From: Jimgerdemannia flammicorona
Taxonomy: Eukaryota
Assembly: GCA_003990765.1 (NCBI GenBank)
Contig: RBNJ01000257.1
Span: 1 to 35,212, forward strand
DNA: 35,212 nt
Direction: 5' to 3'
Below the pieces are notes generated by a model. That model was not told where the DNA came from. It did not search any database and saw nothing but the letters and a program-made list of their open reading frames with translations. Positions 8,902 to 35,212 of this stretch are shown piece by piece (position 1 is the stretch's first letter; each line of letters opens with the position of its first letter). The position numbers and the translations under genes are program-made.

Positions 8902-10392
8902 ATGAACAAGCTCCCCATCGAAACCCTCACCCATATCTTCGCCCAAATTCCCGACCCGACCGCCTGGTCTACTGTTAGTCACCTATTCCACAACATCTCG
9001 CGCGACCCGGCTGCCGTCGCCGAATGGAGCCTTCTCCGTTTCGACCGTTGGCGCGCCTTCGATGCGATGATCGGCCTTCACCCACGCATCCTCACTCCTC
9101 ACGTCTCCGTATGCATGCTCGCAAAGGGCGCCTATCTGCCCCGACATCTAGTTCAAACGGTGCTCCTACACCCAGGTATCCCGGGACTCAAGGACGAGAC
9201 GATCGGGACATTACAACACCATGCAGCGATGAAGTACGGGAATTGGGAGGCAGGACAAAACGACATCATTCTTCTCGAACCCTTGTGCGAAGAGGCAAGG
9301 ACCGCTGTTGCAGAAGACGACCCAGCCGCATCGCTATCAGACCAACTCCCCATCGGCCTCAAGACGGCCATTGACGAGCTCGTTCGACGCACACACTTCT
9401 ACCCTATCCGCTCGTCGATTCCGGGACACAACCAGAACTTCGAACTCATCCTGGTCACGCTCCTTATCTATGCCCGGTCCTATATGCAGGAGCTTTTCCG
9501 CCAAGGCTTCAGTGTGAAGGAAACCTCGGGCCCAATCAACGCCTTCCTTCCCATCCTCCAAGGCTCAGACTACTCAAATGCCAGACAAGCCAAATGCCTG
9601 AATTTCCTCCTCGCAGAAAAGGCCGTCGTCGTCCAACCCACAGAAATCCAAATCCTCCTCGTTTCTCACCTTCAATTCAACCGCTTTGAATCCGCCTTCG
9701 ACATTCTCCTCAATACATTCCCCTTTTCCCTTACGCCCCTAGTCCACAACGCCCTGCGTACCGTTCTCCCAGACCCAACCTGGCCTACAACCCTAACACA
9801 GCCTGCAGACCCAACCATCCCGGACTTCCTCTTTCGATCCATGTACCGTTTGCACCCGTCCCGCACCGTCCTGGACGAAGTCCTCGCCGCCCGCTTCGCC
9901 TCCACCCCGGAGGTATCCGACACTCTTATTCTCTCCCCATCTACCCTCAAGACCTTCCTACACGAGTTAAACTGGTCCGTCTACAGCCCGGGTGCCCGGT
10001 ACCTGTTTTCCCTTGCCGCGCGACGCATGGCACCCCCCAGTCCGCTCGCGAACGAGTACGCGGAGATCGCACGTCGGTGTGTGAAGGAAGGTTTTCGGTG
10101 GAGCGAGTCGCATTTTGATCTCATGTTTAAACAGACCAGCGTAGCTGATTTTAAACAGTTCATTTTGGACGTCGTCACCGAGGCCAAGCCTGTCGTTGTT
10201 GATCGTGGGGATGGAGAGCGTGCGATCTCGCTTGGGGAGTTTCTGACCGAATGGTTCAGGGAGAAAATCAAAGAAGTGGAGTTCTGGGAGGCGAAGAGTT
10301 GGCCGAGGTCGATTCCGAAGGATGCCGTTTTGAATGGGAGGGCTAGGATTAAGGAGGCGGTGAGGACGTGGTCGCAATTTATGCAGGGGTGA
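8902..10392 (+). CDS. Protein with N-terminal F-box-like motif and helical C-terminal region (496 aa)
   Basis: Long intact single-exon ORF. MNKLPIETLTHIF...VSHLFHNISRDP..VAEW...LAKGAYLPRHLVQ resembles, from recall, an F-box-like family expanded in Mucoromycota/Glomeromycotina. Confidence 0.85.
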   Translation: MNKLPIETLTHIFAQIPDPTAWSTVSHLFHNISRDPAAVAEWSLLRFDRWRAFDAMIGLHPRILTPHVSVCMLAKGAYLPRHLVQTVLLHPGIPGLKDETIGTLQHHAAMKYGNWEAGQNDIILLEPLCEEARTAVAEDDPAASLSDQLPIGLKTAIDELVRRTHFYPIRSSIPGHNQNFELILVTLLIYARSYMQELFRQGFSVKETSGPINAFLPILQGSDYSNARQAKCLNFLLAEKAVVVQPTEIQILLVSHLQFNRFESAFDILLNTFPFSLTPLVHNALRTVLPDPTWPTTLTQPADPTIPDFLFRSMYRLHPSRTVLDEVLAARFASTPEVSDTLILSPSTLKTFLHELNWSVYSPGARYLFSLAARRMAPPSPLANEYAEIARRCVKEGFRWSESHFDLMFKQTSVADFKQFILDVVTEAKPVVVDRGDGERAISLGEFLTEWFREKIKEVEFWEAKSWPRSIPKDAVLNGRARIKEAVRTWSQFMQG

Positions 10393-10709: not shown

Positions 10710-10742
<33 letters not shown>

Positions 10743-13307
10743 AGACCGCGAAACGAAAATTGGGATGTTGATATTCCCGAACTATTAAAACAGGAGACGA
10801 AAAGCTTCTGCGAAGACTTTTCTCCATCAAGACTCCGGATGGATGAAGGTATTGAGTCCGTAATCCATTTTGAGTTGAAAGTTGGCAGGTTATGTATTGC
10901 GCGTTAGGAATCTTGGTACGGATTGCTGGCGGCGGGTGTTCGCAAAACGTTTGGGGAATGCGAAATTTAGGTTAACTGACGGACAGGCCCTGTGTTTTAT
11001 ACGTATAAATGTTTGTCAACGAACGCCCGCATATCGGTATGCATATAAATGTTCCACCGGACTTTGTAGTTCCACGTAGTTACATGTCAATTGTGAGAGG
11101 GGTATTGGAGACGGGTGAGCGCTGTCGGATTTGTGTCCAGATAGACAAGGTTGCTATTATCATGACCGGAATGCTCAAAGATGCACGGATTATGTTCTGG
11201 TTCGATGGTGCGGTTTGTTGCTAGCTAAGCTGTCGACGCGGATCCGGCGTCTAGACGAACTAACATTGGGGATTCGTGCAGTGCCGGTATTGTCACACAC
11301 GCATACACGGCCCAAGCAGACGGCCGATTGAGGCCATTCTTTTTTTCTCTCGTCACTCTAATCTGGAAATATAAGGGCCGTGCCGCTTTGTCTCGGTGTC
11401 TACCACCCATTCATTGATTCTACCAAAGGAAGTGCTATGGAAATATTTTGTTCTACATCACGCTTCCCGTTGAACGATAGCAACTTTGGTTATGAGTGTA
11501 ACAGCAAGTATGCTTGGCAGGCTGAATTGTAAACTCATTTTTTTCACGCTCACTTTATTTACTAGATAGAACAAGCCTACTTTTTTTTTTTTTTTTTTTT
11601 TTTTGGAAAAGAAATGCAAGGCCCACCAGTCTGACAGGAAACTAAAAAGCTTAGTGTTCCATTTGATTCTACCTTCTGGAATACACTGAAGCGCCATAAC
11701 TACATTGCTATTGTGCGCCGAATAACATTATGGTTTGAAAACAACACCTCGACCACCTCTACTTCTCACACGGGCACAAAAGCACGGTGACAAGACTCGA
11801 TTCGTTCGCAGTCAACCTTCTTCATGTGTGGTATATTCTCTATTGCATCACATCACATTCACGTGGATCGGTGGTTATGGTCCCACTGTTCGAGACGCTG
11901 TCGAAAGAAAACATTCACATATTTAGAGGACTTTGTTATAACATTAATGCTGTTCCCATTGTCGTTTTCAATGAAACCGAAACTCCGTTCTGCGTTTATG
12001 ATCCGAGCGATTGGATGCCGTGTGTGGCGAAATAAAACCGCTCGGAATTCCTAGCTGTCGTCGACGGGCATTATCTGCATCCATGCGAATATTGATTCCA
12101 CATCTAACGTAAAGCACAGAGCTGCCGTTCATCGAAACCGACGCTCCCGACTCGCGAATGAATCGTAATTTAGACGAGGCAGCGCGGAGGGTTCAGCACC
12201 ATAACGATTGCGCAAGTTACGCTGGATACACAAAGTCGCTCAAAATTTAAGCGGTGCCATTGAGCGGACCTTTTGCTTCGCAAATTAACAACCCTCCCCT
12301 CCCCGACTAAATCGAAACTGGTCGTTGCGTCACCGATATTTCAGCGTACGTAACACGCCGCCGGGTAAATATACTAACTATGGTCATCTCGACACGTTTT
12401 ACGAACCTTATTATTCCTCTCGTTGCTGTACAACAAATAGGATTCTGGAATAAAGTGTGGAGTACGTTCAACGATATATTCCTCATCAATCGTCAGATCC
12501 GCCAACGAGTGGGCTAAAAGTTGTCATCAGGAAATAGGTAGAATGAAGTCGCAATCATTGTCGTCATACGCCGTGATGATCTCTCCTTTATGGTCAAATC
12601 TGGAAACCCGCCAAGCCGCCAAGCCGCCTAGACGAATTCCACTCTAGCATTGAAATCGCCCTTAGCCCTACCGCTCGCACCCGCCCTTCGTCAGCACGTT
12701 CCACTATCGTCGCCCCGGGCCGGGAAATTAACGTCATTTCATCTGTGCAGTATGGAGTTCGATTTTTGTGTCCCATTTCACAATAAAGGGTTTCCCCTGT
12801 ACATATCGGGCGCCCTAAATGACACCATCAGAGTCTCGCAAATCCAATGTCCGGCTTGTCGTCCCCCTGAGGGGGTATGTATGTAAAATTTCTTTCACGA
12901 TGGTAATATCCGAAACCCTATAATAAATTTGCGCCGCGACGTCGTATTGGGCAGGCGCAAATTCGTAATTTACCCGGAATCGGCGAGACGGTTTGCCGGC
13001 TCTTGAAATGAAACCCCTGTGGACGGTATCGGTAGTGAGGGGTCAAGGTAAACGCGAGTCGAGGCATTGTCCAAGAGCCATACTCCTAAACAGGGCTCCG
13101 GGGACAAACCTCTTGGTTCTCGCTTGGGTGGGACCGAGTTGCCGGATTTGGGAAATGCAGAGGAGGCATCCCGTGACCAAGCCCCGAAGCCCGTTTCGTA
13201 TATATTTAAAAGGATGCGAATTTCAAAGGTGATCGTCGTGTTTTCCCCTCGTCTCATCCTTGGACTTCCAACTTTCCCGCCGCTCGACCCAAAACTCTAT
13301 CACCACC

Positions 13308-15395: not shown

Positions 15396-15764
15396 TTTTT
15401 TTTTTTTTAAAAAAAAAAACATAATTAGGACTAATCATAAACCCAACACTTGATTATTCTCCCAACATTTTACGTTGAAAGGCTCAACAAATTGAGTTTG
15501 GCGCATGGTTATGGAATATAGGGGTGGACGAACGTATTGGAGGTATGCTCGGAAAGTTTATGGCTGAATGTACGAATATCCAGCAATTTCCTCGGTCTTT
15601 TGGTTCGTCGTCAGTTTTACTGTTACTATTTCCTCTCTGATGGCAACCCACAAATTCTAAACGCATATATATATATATATGCGCTGATGGGCTTATGTTA
15701 ATCAAATAGCAAAGAATCGATTTTTCGCTAGTTAAACAACCGAAATAACACCTCTTCTAAGCAC

Positions 15765-15815
<51 letters not shown>

Positions 15816-15823
15816 GAAAAAAA
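15396..15823. repeat. Two poly(T)-poly(A) head-to-head runs
   Basis: T13A11 at 15396-15419 and T35A16GA7 at 15765-15823. Other long homopolymers occur near 2656, 10713, 11580 and 14702. Confidence 0.9.
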
Positions 15824-17109: not shown

Positions 17110-18399
17110 ATGGATCAAGGAAGTTCCCCATCTCCGTCGTCTGCCGTATCCACATGCAGCAACGAAAGGGACGAAGAGAAGAAACCCCATGAATCGAGCA
17201 CACAATTCCCGGCCGAGCTTCAATTCTACGTCGATAACGTCGACGAGCTCTCTGCCAAACCGCGCCCCATCTGCGCCGTGGAATTGAGAAACACGGGTCG
17301 TTTGGAGCTTTTGGTCAGCACGGTAAGGCTTCCAACAATAGGCCTCCTCTTTCTCCATCACCTTGAAACACATTAAGTAATGATATCCATCGTTCCTTTC
17401 CAGATTGATGACATGATGACGAACAATATCAAGAAATTAAAATTCGAACTCCGATTTCACGGCCCTTTGGACGTCTTCCGTGCAAAAAAACAGACCGTCA
17501 CCGTGAATCTGCAAGTCTGGACCACAAATGCGCAACCCTTGGTTCAGTCCACCCGCACAATGTACAATTCGCAAACGGTCACCATTACCCCGTGTATTGA
17601 TGCATACCGCGACTTTGCGACTGGCTTCCCCGACGATACGCTGGTATGCGACTTGCGGATTCAAGCGATCAACGACGCCGATCCATCGCGCCCTATCACG
17701 CCACTGCCAGCAGTGCCTCAGCTTCTCAACGACCAGAACACGAGCGATGTGGTGTTTCGCGTAGGCGGCCGCCGTATCTTTGCGCACAAGGCAATGCTCA
17801 AAGGAGGCTCCGTTTACTTTGAGCGCATGTTCCAGGGTCGGTTCGCCGAGACTTCGGCCGGCGACGTCACCGTCGATGCCCATTGTGAAATCGACATCCA
17901 AGATTTTGACTACGATACCTTCACCGCATTCCTACTCTACCTGTATACCGGTCGCACCTCCTTCCCTGGGCTCAAAGTAAAGCCACAGGAATTGCATCGT
18001 GTCTCCGACAAGTATCTTGTCGATGGGCTCAAGCTGGCGGCGGAGAAGCTTATCGTCGCTGACCTAACGCCGGAGAATGTTGGTACCTACCTTTTTTTGT
18101 ATGCTGCGAACCACAAAAGGCTCTGCGAGCTCGTCGTGCAGTTCGTGGCGTTTAATTGGAGCCGAGTCTCGATGACCAGCGAGTGGCGTGAAGAAAGGAT
18201 GCGGTATATGGAGGATCTTGCAAAGGACAACCTGATGTCGATGCTGATGGACGCACTAGCCAGATATGCCTCGCGCGATCTCGAGAATAATACTGACGGT
18301 AAAGACCAGGCACCAGATCGCTCGCATAGTGGTCTTCTTCCCTTTCATCCATCTCGGCAAAATCAGCGGATGTCGGCATGGCGTAATTTGTACGCTTGA
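17110..18399 (+). CDS. BTB/POZ domain protein, join(17110..17322,17404..18399), 402 aa
   Basis: SDVVFRVGGRRIFAHKAML...YFERMFQGRFAE...IDIQDFDYDTFTAFLLYLYTG...DKYLVDGLK is a canonical BTB fold signature. An 81-nt phase-0 intron (GTAAGG...TTCCAG) joins the two listed ORFs in frame. Confidence 0.9.
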
Positions 18400-26843: not shown

Positions 26844-27607
26844 AGCAGCCGGGTAGAGCTCAGCGCTGAGGCTCTGGGAGGAGGCGGAGTTCGGTCAGGG
26901 TCGCGGGTACGAAATGAAGGTTGGGTTGGCATATCCGGTAATAGTTGTAGAGAATTGTCGATCGAGGCAGCAAATAGGGTGCACGGTGCGAAAGTTTTAT
27001 GCGTTCGATGTCGAAAAATAATATTTCCTGCTTTTGCGGTTGATCACCGTCAGAAATCATATCAAAGATTTGGGTTGTTTCGTCCACACGTGGCAGGTAG
27101 AAATGATAGGGCGGCCAAAAAAATATGTCCGTGATGGGTTGTGCGACCAACCTGTCGTCTCCTGACCGCCCGCATCAGTTTTGTCGTAAAAACGGCGAAA
27201 ACGGCAGAGACCATGCCTTAAACTACGATGGCATGTCTTCCCCCACCAATAGCGTCTCGCTCACTCACGCCGAAATTGCCTCATCTCAAATGGAAACGAG
27301 CTCTCATACTTCCCACGAGTTGACGAAAGGTACATAGGACGTTGGGGGCGACGCGTTCGTATCCCCCCTTAAAGTCTAACCCGAGGTGCAACAAAGTGTT
27401 GCGCATATAGTTTCGCATTTGACGTCCAAAGGTATTTGTGAGGTCCCTCGGGTGATGGCTATTATCAGATCGGCAAAGTCCATCCCGTTATAAGCCAGTC
27501 CCATGCGTCATCTCCGTGGCCTGTGCGCCAGGTTGATGCTTGTTTTATTTTTATTTTTATTTTTTATTTTTTTATCTTTCTTTCCTTCACCAGAGCATCG
27601 AACCATC

Positions 27608-27645
<38 letters not shown>

Positions 27646-28336
27646 CTTTTTTGTTTTTTTTTTTTTTTTTTTTTTTCACAAGTGCTGAGGCACTTTATTA
27701 TCTATACATTTCTATATACATCAGAAAGACCTCTTGCCACAACAGCAGCAAAGCAAGCATATGACAGAGATCCAGACCAGGACCAAGAGCCCAAATCCAG
27801 GGCTCTAGCCAATATCTTCCTTCCACCTTACTCCTTGAAAATCCAGCACTAGCTGGCTCTGGCTTCCCAATATAATCTCATTTATCTTCCTCAAAGTATC
27901 CATTTGATTCTGCTTCCCCTGGAACTACCACCTTTGTGCCACTTCCTTAACTAACTACTGCTATCTGTTAATCAACTTCCCAACATCCATCTACTACTTT
28001 CCATCAAAAACTCATCACCAGTAGATAGCCATCAGTACTCAAATATTGAGGATCTGTCTAATATCTCTCTACAAATTGCCAATCTCCCCCACCAACCTCC
28101 TTTTGATTACTAACCTAGTAATTTCACCTATCCTTCTATCACTAGAATCTCAATATATCTCTAGGCTTTGTTAATAATCTTCTATATCTAGACAATTAGT
28201 CAAAATATGTTCTGGAATCTGTATCTCTCCTCTCTGTAGTTCTGTATACCATTTACAATCATAATATTCTTCACTATCTATCTAGTCAGTTCTATACTCT
28301 AGTATTATATTTTATCTTAAAAATCTCCACTATACT

Positions 28337-28692
28337 TAGTGCTCCCAAATAAGTTGAATCAAATTGGGGATTTTTCAATTTGAATCAAATTGAGGGTCTG
28401 ATTCGAACCCTAATTTTCCAAATACAATAACTCAACATAAACTCATCCAAATCTAACATACTTTAGCTTGTTAGAATCACATTAATACGGTGAATCTAAC
28501 AAGCTAAAATATGTTAAATTTAGATGAGTTTTCGTCGAGTTATTACATTTTGAAAATTAAGGTTTGAATCAAACTTCAAATCGAATTGGACCTTTGATTT
28601 GATTTAAATCAAATTGAATTGGACCCTTGATTCAATTGAATTGAATCGAGTTTGGGCCAAATTTGATTTGATTCGATTTGTTGGGAGCACTA
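28337..28692. mobile_element. 356-bp hAT-type MITE with foldback structure, nested in the LINE
   Basis: Perfect 12-bp TIR TAGTGCTCCCAA/TTGGGAGCACTA with further subterminal similarity; 8-bp TSD ACTATACT (28329-28336) / ACCATACT (28693-28700); long internal inverted repeat centred at ~28485. Confidence 0.9.
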
Positions 28693-31267
28693 ACCATACT
28701 ACTCAATACTTAGGAGATACTACTCTGCACAAAATATCAGTCCAACTTTACACTTTTTCCCACTCTCAAGTCTTGCTAATCCCAGTCTTCTGCCAATCTA
28801 TTAACTACTGCTCTAGAGATCCTACTTATATTCACTCTATAGCCTTTTCTAACAAATACTCTTCTAAGCTTTTATCTCTTATTTAGAGCAACTTTAGCTT
28901 TTATCACTTTTTTTTAAAATCCTCATAATCCTCTACTTTTAGCTTATCTAGTCTTATATTCAACTATACCTCTACTATATATCACCAAAATCCTCTGTAC
29001 CATAATCTACTCATACTTCTCATCTGAAGTAGACTTCCCAAATTTCTTTACTCTATCTTATAGAGATAGAACCTAATCTCCCAATTATCCATAGCTAGTC
29101 TGCCTTACTTCTTCTCTCCCAAGTCTACTAACTTTCACCCCCACTATTCTCTCAAGATCTTGAGATACTGCTAAAAGTCTAATAATCTTAAACTACTATC
29201 TACTATCTATAATACTATTATCTCTCAACTAATCTATAGCTACTTCTCTCTCTACAACTATTCTTCAATAACTTTCTTCAATCTCCTCACTATCTATCTA
29301 GGAAAGTCTAGATAATAACCCAGATACTATAGCTTTAGCAGTCAGTAAATATTCAAAACTACCACCCTATCTACTAAAGAGAAATTTCTCTCTAACTATT
29401 TCATCAAAGCCTTTTCTTATTTTAATACTATTTCTCTCTACTACTTTATAGACAAAACTGTCTTATAGACTAAAAACCAGATCTCTAGATATCAAACTAT
29501 CTCTCCAATAACTACTATATATCCAAATCTCTCTATCTCTCTTAAACTAGCTCCAATCTCTATTATCTTATATTTTTCCCAATTTAGCTTTGCTCCTACT
29601 ATCTTCTCATACCTTTTAACTCTATCTCCACATCTTCCTTATAGCTCAAATCAATCACTATATTATCTATAAAGCCCCCACCTTCTAAACCACCTTTTCT
29701 ATCTTTAGTTCAGTCAGATGTTCTCTCAATTAATTCAGTAATAGTTCTAAGAACAAAATATATATAAGGGGGGAAAGTATATTTCCCTATAGTATACCTT
29801 TCTCTAATATAAACTCTGATTTACTCTAATTATTCATCAGTATAGCTACTTAATAACTTTATATCAGACTTATCATCCTCCTCATCTTGTCAAGATCAAA
29901 CCCAATTCTTCTCAATACTCATTCCAAATAGTTCCACCTCACTCTGTCATAAGTCTTCTCCTAATTTTTAAAAAAAAACCATCTATCTATCTACTTGATG
30001 ACTCCTGTAATCCTCTAATATATTCTATATCCAGGCAGTACTACTTCTCTTTACAAACTCATACTACTTCTCTCTCATTAGTCTGTCAATCCACTGCTAC
30101 ATCTTTGCTGCTAAAGATCTTTATAACTAACTTTCTATTAACATTCAACAGTATAATTAATCTCTAATTATACTATATTCTCCTATATATCTTCTTTCTT
30201 CTTATAGATTAGAGAAATCAATCCTAAGAAGCTATTATTAATCTAGCAGCTCTCTTTCAAAATATAGTTCACTATCTTTATTAATCAATCATTAAACTTT
30301 ATCTAAAACTTCTTCTAAAATTTCCATAGCAGTCCATTCTTTTCTAGTAAAGATCCAGTCTATATCTTTCTCAAAACTTCAAGTATATATACTTCCTCTA
30401 AGAATATCTTCTTTATAACTATACTGTCTATTTTCTATATCTCTACAATTTGTTAATTCTCCAACAGACTCTCCCTTTTAACTCCAATCTCTCTGCTCTC
30501 CTCATATATCTCTCTATTCTACCAGAGAGCCTGTTACTGTTCAGAAACCTCCCCTAATATCTCTTCAATCTCAGAGACCTCAACTTTATTATTCTGTAAT
30601 ACTAATACTTAACTCTACCTTACCTATCTAATTTTCAGAACTTCAGACAAAATTTAGTATATAAGTCTCTCTCCTTTCTCTAACTACTGAACTCTCAATC
30701 TTACTAGCAATCTATCTACTACTCTATCCTCTGCCACTCTTAATTCTGACTATAGATCCTTCACTTCTACAGTCAGTTTTCTTAGCTCCTCTACTATTAA
30801 CTCTTTCTTCTTAAGCTTTATCAGCCATCATTGCAGTCTCTTTTCCAGCCTCCTCTCTCTATCTTATTGTTTTTTATTTATCACTTCTCCTATACCCCTC
30901 TAGAAGACTCCTGTCAAGTATTTATATCAATCTCACCATTTTACTACAGACTGTCCATCTATTTTTCACTTTGTTACATCTTGATAAATAACTCTAACAA
31001 ATCTCTCTCTCTCTATCTATCTCTGAAACAATACAATATACAAGTACCAGTACTCTCTACTACCTCTTGATACCAGAAACTGACTCTATACCTCTACCCT
31101 TCAGTAGTGAGACTAGGAATATCATCTCATCTCTATAGTATTTAACATATTCTTCCAATACTCTACCACTAATATCTAGTCAATTTTTGTCTCTATCAGA
31201 ACATCTCCAACTAAGTATTATTTAGTAAAATATCTAGATACCTCTCTTATTTATGTCTAATTCTATC

Positions 31268-32450
31268 TTTTTTTTTTTTTGTTTAACAGACTCTATATCC
31301 CGTGGAATTTTATTGGAAGGGAACCTAGACTGTATAGGCCAAAACCCTCCCCCACCACCCACCAAGCACTGCTCCCCCATTAACCTAGGCTAGCTATTGT
31401 CCAGCAGCTTGACCATGCCAGGTGCAGCAGGGCAAATAAGCCTGCACCTTGTTCTGCACACCAAGCTCTCTCTACCACCAGGGGAAACCCAGCCATATGC
31501 CAATAACCGAAAGCGCACACCCGAGAACCCAACATATGTACAAGGCCATGCCCGAGCTAAATAGAATAGCCCCTGCCACCCCAAAGAGAATGACAGGCAA
31601 AGAAAAAACCCTCATCAAAGCACAACATGGTGGGTAGGGCCTGGTTCTCCCAGTCGAGGTGAGTAAAGAACTTACATGTGAGGTGGGAGGAAACCCCCAA
31701 CCCCACTACTCAAGCCTGCGGGCCTCGATCATGTTGCCATATCAGCTCCTAGTTCCAGTTGAGTGTAGCCAAGATGCCTGAAATGGGTAGCCTCAGGCCC
31801 CCCGACCCCCCCTGATGACTGGGGCCTCACCCCACTACCCACCAAAAGAAGCCGAAAGTGACACCTACCACCTAACCGCGCCACACCAATCAAAAGGCCC
31901 CACCAAAGCAGCACCTGCCCCAGCCCTGATGACCGCCCCCAGCCTGGCACCCTACTGGTCCACCGTTATCGCCCTTCCTCCTATCTATGACGGCCATCTC
32001 CCCTCCCAACCCGATAACACCCGAAAAGCAGTCACCTATGCCAGAACCACACTCACTGGGAAGCTCACCAAGCCAGAGGGCCCCACCACAGGCACCAAAG
32101 ACCTGCAGGTAACCTACACTGGGCACTTGATGCCCAAGGTCGGCCGACTCCCTACGTAGCCCGAGACACACCAAGACAACTCCTTGTTGGCAACGGCAAA
32201 AGGAAGAAAGCACCGCACCAAAATGGGTACATCCCAGATGCAGCTGAAGGCACCAGAATCTGCGAAAAAGTGGAGGAAGCACCAATCTGACACCGATAAA
32301 GGGACAACTCATCACCATTACCCTCCTCCCACCATGCCCCTGCAGGCACAGCAAACCAACCCGAGGTAGAGGGGGTAATATTAGAGGAAAGGGGACTCAG
32401 AAGGTCACCTACCAAACCTTGTGACCAGTAAGGTAGCAGAGAAAGGAGCG
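31268..32450 (-). mobile_element. 1.18-kb polyadenylated non-LTR retroposon (non-autonomous element or 5'-truncated LINE 3' end) nested in the LINE
   Basis: T13 at 31268-31280, AATAAA at 31314-31309, 16-bp TSD TATGTCTAATTCTATC (31252-31267) / TATACCTAATTCTATC (32451-32466); abrupt switch to GC-rich, CpG-containing sequence. Confidence 0.88.
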
Positions 32451-32999
32451 TATACCTAATTCTATCTATTAGCTCTATTTATTTCTCAATCTACAGTCAT
32501 CTTGACAGACTCAGAGAGACTATTACCCTAACTTTTTTATCAGAATGATTCAGCCTCCTGTCTTACACTATGTTAAAATTTTCCCCAACAATGTCCAGTT
32601 CTACCTCCTTCTATCTTTTCATACTATCTACTCTTTTATATATTACTTTTGCTCTCTGCCAACTACCAGAAGATAGACAGAGCCCACAACTAGCCCATTA
32701 CTAATCTTCTCTTTCAATTGCCCTCATATAAAATGTTCACTATAGATAGCCACCTCTATTAGTTCTCTCTGTTCAACTCTAATCAAAATTCTAACCTATC
32801 TATTCTACTCTGTACCTCTAAATCATTCCTTGCTTCACTTCTCCTAATCCTACTTATCATATATCCAGACATCCTAAATAAGTACTACATCATACTTTTG
32901 TATCTTTAGTTACTAGAATAAATATCATCTCTTCACTCTATCTCTCAGATTATTGACATTAAGTAATAAAATGCTGAGATCTTTTATAATATATTAATG

Positions 33000-34400
33000 G
33001 AGAATTAAAGTACTCTAACTACTACTACTACTCTTTCAGCTTTCTCCAGATGATATTCTGTCATTTCTTACAGATTATTCTCCAGATATATTTGCTACTC
33101 TTACTACTATAAAACTCATCTATATACTTTACACCACTCTTCTGATATTAGCTATCTGAGCTTTATCTACTTTATATTCAAGAGTACTATTACTATAGCT
33201 ATCACCAGCTTTTATCTCTGAAGTACAATATTAAGGAGCCCAGTCCAATCTTCTTAAGACTCACTAAACACATCTATCTCCTGAATATCCTTCTCTACTA
33301 GCTCTTTCAGAACTATCTTAAATTAGTCTATCTCTGAGAACTCTCTGAACTTATACATATATAGAGGGTCTTGGAGTCCTGATCAGCTTCTGAAGCATTT
33401 CTCTTTAGTCAAAATATCAGATGCTATTTCTATCAATTTATTCTCCTTAGTAGCCTTCTCTAACTATACTCTCTTATCTATCTTTGAGCACTCTCAATAT
33501 ATATTTACTATCTCAGCTATATAAATATCCTCTATCTATATTTTAAACACCATCTATATAGCCTCCTCAAATCCACCCTGCTCCACCTCCTCTTTGTTAG
33601 CTCATTTCTCCATAACTGGTGCATATTGTATATCTTTCACTTTTTTAAGCTGAGCAAATAACATCTCTGCTACCTCTATACTCTCTATCTGATTGCTTTT
33701 CACTACTACTCTCTCAGCTATCTTCTCTTCCATTTCTTACAATATATACTATCTACAGATATTTTCAGCCTTATCTCCTCTATCTCTTCTTCTTCTCATC
33801 TACTAGAACTCATATCTAATTCTTGATAAATTTCTCTATCTCTTCTGATATATCTTCTTAGCTGCTCTCCTTTCTTCTAGAGTCATCATCAGTTTACTCT
33901 CCTTTTGCTTCATTCTCTTTCTCCTCTACACCTTATACTTCTGCCCTATAATATAAATTATCTCCAGCTAATCCTTCTCTAAGTTAGTCACTTCTCTCTC
34001 TTCTAGCCTTACTATCACCTTATAGTTTCCATTCCTTAGCTTAGTGATCTCTTAGAATATAAAGCTGAAGTCTACTATCTTACTATATTACTTCAAAGTC
34101 TCTACTACTATTTCTTTTATCTCTTGTATCTTTAGTATTGATACTTCTTCTACTACCAATCTCACAGCTCTGAGATCTCACTACAAATATCTTACTATTT
34201 CAATCCTGACTCCTCTAACTATCAATCTTTTGTCAATAGTAGTCATCATTATCTCCTCCTCTATAAAGCCAATATTGACCATCTCTATTAACAGAATAAA
34301 CTTTAGAGACTTAACTCTTATAAGCTAATTAACTATAGTATTTCTCTGGCTAATATCTCAAGATCTAAAAAGTTAGCTGAGATTGCCTATATCAATACTG
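33000..34400 (-). pseudogene. LINE ORF1 relic (approximate limits)
   Basis: Purine-rich, Glu/Lys/Arg-coding relic just upstream of ORF2, with TLK*YSKIVDFSFIF..TKLRNGNYKVIVRL resembling the L1/Tx1 ORF1 RRM-like region. Confidence 0.6.
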
Positions 34401-35212
34401 ATTTGTAAAAGAAGAGTTATACCAGAAGAGAAAAAAAGCACACTAAGAGCTGAGAAAAAGGAAAGAGAGCAAGAAGGTCAAGGGAGAGGTGTTGTGGGGT
34501 TCTCATATATGATGATGGAATAGACTACTTCTGGGGAGTGCTCCACTTGTTACTTTTGATATTGGGGATAGAGTAGAGTATCAGTGGAGACTTGGCCAGG
34601 ACCTTTGGCCAAGCAGTTGGCAGGTAGTCAGGATTGGCAAGGAGTGGGACTGGGCAGGTATCTGGTCTTAGAGTGCTGAGGTGTGGAGGTGGCTTCTCCC
34701 CAAGTTCTGGGTGGTGTGGTGGTGAATGCTGCAGAGAAATATCATGTTGAATTTCCGCACCAGGCATCTGGTGGATGGTGGCTGTTTTGACTGTGAGGAG
34801 TATTACAATGTAGGGCAAGTTGGGGGTTTGGTGCAGATACCAGAACATTGGCTGGGGGAGTGTGAGGTTTTGGGGGACTTTTGGGTTAAAATAGGGAATA
34901 GACTGGGTGTGGAGTGCAGGCCAGTGGGTGAAGGGGACCACTGGGAGGCCTTGAGATCTCGGCTGGTAGGGGGGGTGGGTGATAGTTGGCTCACTGTCGG
35001 GTGGGTGTTAGCAGTTTGGGTGGGTCTGGTGGGACATTGGCTTTTTGTGTTTGAGGAGGAGTGGCAGATGAGCCTACAGGAGAAGGTTGTGAGGTGGGAG
35101 GAGCTGTTAGGGAATCTGTTGACTGGATGGTGGATTGGTTGGGGTCCTTCAGGGGGGTGATAGTGTGGTTTGGTGGCAAGGATATGCAAACAGAGTAGTG
35201 GGAGAGTTGGAA

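Follow-up and report, generated by a model that had tools for sequence, protein, structure and literature searches.

Which process removes cytosines from a transposon according to the base that follows them, in a fungus that stands outside the ascomycetes? This question is raised by a long interspersed nuclear element (LINE) that lies in a heavily decayed block at the right end of contig RBNJ01000257.1 of the mycorrhizal fungus Jimgerdemannia flammicorona. An initial annotation of the locus had proposed that a C-to-T hypermutation resembling repeat-induced point mutation (RIP), with CpT spared, was confined to this LINE in an apparently early-diverging fungus. Indeed, J. flammicorona is placed in the Mucoromycota, Mucoromycotina, Endogonales, and is not an ascomycete. 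The analysis reported here is based on the 35,212-bp window, that is, the complete contig, on three related protein fragments and on the literature. The changes are directional (C>T and G>A), affect both strands and are confined to transposon DNA. On balance, the decay of the block probably reflects transposon-targeted methylation of CG and non-CG cytosines of the Dim2 kind, followed by deamination, although this reading of the sequence is held with only modest confidence.

The direction of change was deduced by comparing the old LINE with its relatives. As a proxy for the ancestral state, use was made of the residues of P0153, P0004 and P0006, which are about 36% identical to the element as read. 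The alignment covers 381 window codons, 73 of which were dropped as the relatives disagreed, leaving 308 with a single or unanimous relative residue. For each of these, it was scored whether one substitution class alone is enough to derive the window codon from any codon for the residue in the relative. Identical codons account for 130 of the 308 positions, and C>T/G>A alone raises the number explained to 234, a gain of 104 codons. The five control classes gain 11 (T>C/A>G), 18 (C>A/G>T), 5 (A>C/T>G), 7 (C>G/G>C) and 23 codons (A>T/T>A), so that the transitions on both strands noticed at the outset are borne out with a wide separation from the controls. The fate of single residues illustrates the same trend. 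Specifically, 15 of the 20 aligned Trp positions are now stops (TAG, TGA or TAA), 27 of 41 Gly positions have become Arg, Ser, Glu, Asp, Lys or Asn via G>A, 11 of 13 Ala positions are now Val or Ile, and CGN is left at no Arg position. At the sites where the ancestral base can be determined, the inferred G+C falls from 257 of 455 to 150 of 455. In the frame 30851-28749, which comprises 701 codons, there are 59 stops, no CGN codon and 64 AGR codons.

The conserved reverse-transcriptase core tells a concordant story. The alignment of this region (148 of 150 matches listed; 145 high-scoring segment pairs, or HSPs, returned and 3 dropped for frame or place) has 287 columns, and among the matches listed 35 of these are conserved, 22 being identical in the LINE; of the 13 differences C>T/G>A explains 7, against 0-3 for the control classes. 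Individual broken codons of the reverse transcriptase and endonuclease, which had been remarked at the outset, are recovered as CAG>TAG at 29789 and GAT>AAT at 29783 and 29966, besides the Trp codons turned into stops. GGG>GGA, proposed together with these, would be a synonymous change.

The sequence context of the changes was scored in the 234 identical or reachable codons only, with the 74 unreachable ones dropped, and at sites where the amino acid fixes the ancestral base, namely codon positions 1 and 2 plus position 3 of Trp and Met. With both strands pooled, 12 of 16 cytosines in CpG are mutated and every CpG dinucleotide is destroyed, CpA is mutated at 17 of 30 sites (0.57), CpC at 48 of 95 (0.51) and CpT at 7 of 38 (0.18), the difference between CpT and CpA plus CpC being significant (Fisher p = 3e-4). 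In other words, the order is CpG, then CpA and CpC at about the same level, with CpT far behind, in agreement with the suggestion that CpG, CpA and much CpC had been lost and CpT spared. Of the seven CpT events, six replace Arg (AGR) by Lys, an exchange that is common in nature and may represent ordinary divergence (the reverse, Lys>Arg, is found at 3 of 15 positions), and none of 18 CTN sites is mutated where both following bases can be determined; mutation at CpT is therefore at or near background. Part of the excess of CpT is secondary, because mutation of the second cytosine of a CpC turns the first one into a protected CpT. Among the retained TCN codons for Ser, 8 of 10 are TCT.

The base that precedes the cytosine has no detectable effect over 70 sites (p = 0.88). 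Such an effect had been hinted at by the survival of Ala GCN (0 of 11) and Ser TCN (9 of 10) codons, and was dropped in view of the flat site-level test; moreover, GCT is not depleted among the surviving cytosines of either strand. A sparing of CHG (H being A, C or T), as in Phycomyces, was likewise considered and is not seen, C[A/C]G being mutated at 7 of 12 sites and C[A/C]H at 34 of 58, with small numbers.

The + strand of the LINE contains 7-10% G and 24-27% C, with a GC skew down to -0.6, a strong asymmetry that the initial annotation had not mentioned, and the question arises whether it was generated by the mutational process. Per-site rates are the same for sense C (28 of 62) and sense G (92 of 215; p = 0.77), and at determinable codon positions 1 and 2 the inferred ancestor already had 195 G and 62 C, which have become 116 and 34. 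Accordingly, the editing of a single strand is ruled out as the source of the skew by the equal rates and by the already skewed ancestor. The skew goes back to the coding strand, which was G-rich, with many codons for Gly, Glu, Val, Asp, Arg and Trp, and the process itself is strand-symmetric. The mutated sites are not clustered (neighbour concordance 0.507, shuffle mean 0.507, standard deviation 0.03), and the mutated fraction stays between 0.38 and 0.47 across all five blocks tested along the LINE. As to tempo, the data favour a steady process acting independently on each site over a small number of bursts, although a RIP-like process repeated many times would be blurred alike.

These site-level results are mirrored in the overall composition of the block. 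Over the LINE stretches 27677-28330, 28701-31270 and 32451-34450 there is no CpG, where about 100 would be expected from the present base composition. The absence of CpG that had been reported therefore holds for the old LINE body, and does not extend to two elements nested in it, which keep 7 and 28 CpGs, respectively. TpA is abundant, as had also been remarked: TpA/ApT and (CpA+TpG)/(ApC+GpT) amount to 1.27 and 0.85 in 28701-31270, to 1.20 and 1.05 in 32451-34450, and to 0.97 and 1.38 in 27677-28330, as compared with 0.70 and 1.15 in unique DNA. The usual cut-offs of these RIP indices are 0.89 and 1.03. Most surviving cytosines lie in CpT: this holds for 764 of 1309 cytosines of the + strand and for 254 of 405 of the - strand, whereas the share in unique DNA is 22%; in the short interval 29161-29220, singled out at first sight, all 10 cytosines precede T. 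These features all lie far outside chance expectation.

Unique DNA of the same contig provides an internal control and does not share this spectrum. In positions 1-27500 the observed-to-expected ratio (O/E) of CpG is 1.11, and in no 500-bp window is it below 0.66. CpGs are dense through 27526, a single further one is found at 27599, and none directly follows the T run at 27610-27676; beyond it, up to 34755, CpGs occur only in the two nested elements. The abrupt switch of composition at the poly(A) tail is thus confirmed. The notion that the footprint is limited to one LINE had to be given up, since the right flank (34460-35212) and other elements are CpG-poor too. In particular, the CpG O/E follows a series: it is 0.81 in a nested miniature inverted-repeat transposable element (MITE) and 0.33 in a nested retroposon, falls to 0.08 for the right flank and reaches 0 for the LINE, and a loss of cytosines outside CpG, beyond that of CpG, is found only in the old LINE body. 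From this gradation by nesting it follows that the decay of CpG outpaces that of CpA and CpC several-fold.

The anatomy of the block explains where these differences lie. From 27.6 kb to the end of the contig, the DNA is a pile of retroelements, and the interval that had been taken as one LINE holds the old LINE body, a less decayed piece adjoining the poly(A) tail, a MITE of 352 bp and a nested retroposon of 1187 bp. The features are collected in Table 1.

Table 1. Features of the window, with the decayed block listed from its left edge to the contig end
Feature	Position	Strand	Remarks
Gene-bearing unique DNA	1-27526		Internal control; C2H2, F-box and BTB domains
BTB-domain open reading frame (ORF)	17380-18399		In the unique part; 100% identity to a J. 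flammicorona protein
Poly(A) tail	27610-27676	-	+ strand reads T36-C-T6-G-T23; left edge of the CpG-free block
Less decayed retroposon piece beside the poly(A)	27677-~28100	-	0 CpG, many CpA/CpC kept
Old LINE body, 3' part	28101-28338	-	Heavily decayed; CT-dominated, TA-rich; 0 CpG
Stowaway-like MITE, nested, 352 bp	28339-28690		TA target duplication, GTGCTCCCAA inverted ends, long internal hairpin
Old LINE body, middle	28691-31268	-	Reverse transcriptase ~30344-29561, linker 31097-30330, endonuclease C-terminal half 31247-30855; 0 CpG
Nested poly(A) retroposon, 1187 bp	31269-32455	-	Tail T12 at 31269-31280
Old LINE body, 5' part	32456-34400	-	Endonuclease N-terminal and middle parts ~32980-32455, with at least 1 frameshift; 0 CpG; upstream region besides
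Right flank to contig end	34460-35212		G-rich (40% G, 12% C), 3 CpG, O/E 0.08

A change point in composition near 28100 (60-bp scan) separates the piece beside the poly(A) from the LINE body, and this piece is probably a separate, younger fragment; the poly(A) adjoins it and possibly belongs to an element different from the old LINE. In this piece, a weak endonuclease-like tblastn match to residues 83-123 of P0153 is found at 27965-27823 (E 0.011; two HSPs, which differ in frame). It is placed only some 150 bp upstream of the poly(A), an odd site for an endonuclease remnant; it could mark an internally deleted LINE derivative or be a chance match. The MITE has a hairpin at 28396-28574 (82.7% over 179 bp) and keeps all of its CpGs within 28404-28674, and its retention of 7 CpGs inside a hypermutated LINE indicates that it is either very recent or untargeted. 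The nested retroposon is bounded by a perfect 12-bp target duplication, CTAATTCTATCT, with copies at 31257-31268 and 32456-32467, and its CpGs lie within 31301-32449; its decay is intermediate, its sense strand is G/T-rich and no Pfam domain was found in three frames. In the right flank, cytosines outside CpG are still abundant and no Pfam domain was found in six frames; it is probably a repeat-like sequence that lies in the opposite orientation and has only begun to decay.

In the gene-bearing part, A/T homopolymer or (TTTTA)n tracts of 24-60 nt were observed at 2656-2684, 10712-10739, 11581-11604 and 15762-15823, the last one being palindromic, and a further tract of this kind lies just to the left of the poly(A), at 27541-27575. 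A C-rich region (GC 0.54-0.57) of the same part contains a 496-aa ORF on the + strand at 8902-10392, for which no Pfam match was found.

The old element is a non-LTR (long terminal repeat) retrotransposon, judging from its translation, in which a reverse transcriptase is present with an endonuclease upstream of it. With the stop-masked translation of 30851-28749 as query, phmmer matched 2124 proteins (E<=0.001), the best at 6.1e-19, almost all of them in the reverse-transcriptase core, and the match to Pfam RVT_1 (E 0.0018) is below the cut-off. At the level of the family, its relatives are P0153, P0004 and P0006, three fragments from JGI metagenome contigs, whose tblastn alignments take in an APE-type endonuclease, in its C-terminal half, as well as the linker (window 32687-30327). 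P0153 aligns at 32687-30855 (main HSP E 1.9e-21) with HSPs split over two frames, and its own match to Exo_endo_phos is weak (E 0.0017, below the cut-off). Tracking the relatives through the endonuclease part (32455-32700 and 31100-31260) requires two frame changes or more, and the frame is unbroken over 31247-30327, by the family relatives, and in the reverse-transcriptase core at 29972-29726, by the matches to it. For the old LINE, no target duplication was detected, and a self-BLAST of the window revealed no second LINE copy, only the MITE hairpin and A/T runs. A search for longer relatives of the family fragment returned only a distant fish LINE protein, one for relatives of near length only P0004 itself, P0006 and P0153, and a metagenome DNA scan with alignment gave 598 pattern matches, none confirmed. 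When the metagenome DNA was scanned with only P0004, the 22 loci obtained, at 22-33% identity, turned out to belong to other LINE families and were set aside.

How, then, could such a footprint arise? Both methylation as the cause and the enzymes proposed for it are the most likely reading of the pattern. A process acting on double-stranded DNA would read the base after the cytosine, working fastest on CpG, at an intermediate rate on CpA and CpC, and hardly on CpT. A DNMT1-class enzyme might maintain CG methylation on transposons, non-CG methylation with the preference CG > CA, CC >> CT would come from a DIM-2-type enzyme, and the 5-methylcytosine (5mC) so formed would deaminate to thymine, gradually and independently at each site. 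Several features of the footprint are of the methylation type: CpG is lost first and most, in transposon DNA only, the following base matters and the two strands behave alike. In the transposons of Zymoseptoria tritici, 5mC is reported to prefer CG, then CA, then CC, and to be nearly absent at CT, and Dim2 promotes C>T in this species (PMC8016269). In the Mucoromycota, Phycomyces encodes DIM2 and DNMT1 and is described as having 5mC almost exclusively in repeats (PMC11258239), and Dim-2 has been inferred in early-diverging fungi (PMC7862722; PMC13297926). The first impression that the spectrum fits neither RIP nor ordinary 5mC decay well was only partly right: it is not a CpA-first spectrum as in Neurospora RIP, and its ranking is equal to the preference for 5mC of Dim2 in Z. 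tritici.

Several points weigh against methylation followed by deamination. The level of 5mC in Mucoromycota is described as generally low (PMC11258239). In Z. tritici, the experimental mutations are reported at CA and not at CG, even though CG is the most methylated context (PMC8016269); the level of methylation and mutation need not track each other. The transposons of Phycomyces are reported to be enriched for CG and CHH methylation and not for CHG (PMC11258239), and in the LINE C[A/C]G is mutated as often as C[A/C]H. The ancestral proxy consists of three fragments of unassigned metagenome contigs, spanning about 380 codons; the scoring is limited to non-synonymous sites at codon positions 1 and 2, with 73 and 74 codons dropped; and nearly all CpT events, being Arg>Lys, may be ordinary divergence. 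Finally, for passive decay, a loss that takes about half of the non-CpT cytosines is very heavy.

This heavy loss brings in the main competitor, a true RIP-like mutator, in which a protein of the DNMT fold would convert C to T enzymatically in repeats or heterochromatin, premeiotically or in mitosis, as a genome defence of Endogonales rather than as a passive by-product of methylation. We regard it as a serious possibility, although clearly a less probable one. About half of the non-CpT cytosines have been converted, with a gain of no more than 11 codons for the reverse transitions against 104, unique DNA is sharply set off from the block, and the indices TpA/ApT (1.20-1.27) and (CpA+TpG)/(ApC+GpT) (0.85-1.05) reach or approach the cut-offs used for RIP. 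Background change appears low because the 67-nt poly(A) has only 2 interruptions, with the reservation that this tail probably belongs to the younger piece. In addition, a Dim2-dependent mitotic mutator of a similar general kind is reported in Z. tritici (PMC8016269). Against such a mutator, the spectrum is CpG-first with CpA and CpC alike, and not CpA-first, the mutated sites are unclustered and evenly spread, and the decay is graded with the age of nesting, CpG being lost first. Moreover, the genome is reported to measure about 240 Mb, repeats making up more than 77% of it (PMC10386755), so that any defence has not contained the transposons, and a kingdom-wide k-mer screen of 2025 is reported to find strong signatures only in four ascomycete classes (PMC12543289). 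A narrower form of the proposal is that Endogonales possess an active transposon-directed cytosine mutator, analogous to RIP, of the DIM-2/DNMT1 type and without RID, which would target any cytosine not placed before T, with CpG attacked fastest; this form is more tentative still.

Two further explanations were weighed. The strong strand asymmetry of the + strand might recall the editing of retroelement RNA, or of single-stranded cDNA during retrotransposition, by an AID/APOBEC-like deaminase. APOBEC enzymes read the base preceding the cytosine, and in the LINE it is the following base that matters; in addition, the asymmetry is ancestral, the two strands have equal per-site rates and neighbouring elements of other kinds are CpG-depleted too, which makes such editing highly improbable, the least probable of the readings considered. 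It could also be argued that no targeted process was at work, and that an old element was AT-rich and CpG-poor by nature or underwent ordinary neutral decay. Indeed, LINE coding strands are often purine-rich, and the comparison is made with few relatives that are only about 36% identical as read. Nevertheless, the directional gain far exceeds that of the control classes (104 codons against 5-23), the inferred ancestral G+C content at determinable sites was much higher than the present one, there is no CGN against 64 AGR in 701 codons, and the adjoining unique DNA has a CpG O/E of 1.11; native composition or neutral decay is thus quite unlikely. All considered, the preference remains with targeted methylation followed by deamination.

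If this preference is correct, its implications would reach beyond a single contig. RIP-like mutation of transposons is treated as a speciality of ascomycetes, with a CpG-limited variant in some basidiomycetes, and a literature search, to which most subscription journals were out of reach, brought up no paper that connects RIP-like mutation with Jimgerdemannia or Endogone. A transposon-confined, context-specific C-to-T footprint in the Mucoromycota suggests a greater age and a wider spread for the mutagenic side of transposon methylation. The decay has not kept the genome of J. flammicorona from filling with repeats (PMC10386755). A mutator of Endogonales, if true, would date a genome defence of the RIP type, or a precursor of it, to before the origin of the Dikarya. 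As a prediction, the methylome of Endogonales should contain mCG, then mCA and mCC, and almost no mCT. The contributions of this window are a test of direction backed by controls, context rates at the level of sites, an ancestral GC skew and a nested series of ages.

The comparison with known systems helps in placing this footprint. Like RIP in Neurospora crassa and other Pezizomycotina, it consists of two-strand C>T/G>A changes in repeats or transposons that leave stop-riddled, AT-rich relics with a raised TpA/ApT. Unlike RIP, which is reported to prefer CpA (PMC8016269, PMC12543289), it has lost CpG fully, with CpA and CpC about equal and CpT least affected, and its host lineage is the Mucoromycota instead of the Pezizomycotina. 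DIM-2 of N. crassa is reported to prefer CT, and Neurospora RIP CpA (PMC8016269), and the spectrum of the LINE fits neither of the two. The TpCpG hypermutation of transposons in Pucciniomycotina (PMC3318451) is similar as a RIP-like, CpG-centred C>T process outside the Pezizomycotina; it differs in its requirement for T before CpG and in its limitation to CpG, as described in that report, while in the LINE the base before the cytosine shows no detectable effect and mutation is heavy at CpA and CpC as well. Phycomyces blakesleeanus (PMC11258239) belongs to the same phylum and has repeat 5mC in CG and non-CG contexts, so that its DIM2 and DNMT1 represent a plausible set of enzymes; that paper is a report on methylation rather than on a mutational footprint and finds CHG not enriched, whereas C[A/C]G is mutated at 7 of 12 sites of the LINE. 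Z. tritici is an ascomycete with RID in which the new mutations fall at CA and not at CG (PMC8016269), whereas the Jimgerdemannia LINE has every CpG gone and CpC at the level of CpA. At the same time, the Dim2 system of Z. tritici is transposon-confined and of the C>T type, and the ranking of its 5mC contexts (PMC8016269) is the ranking of cytosine loss observed in the LINE of J. flammicorona.

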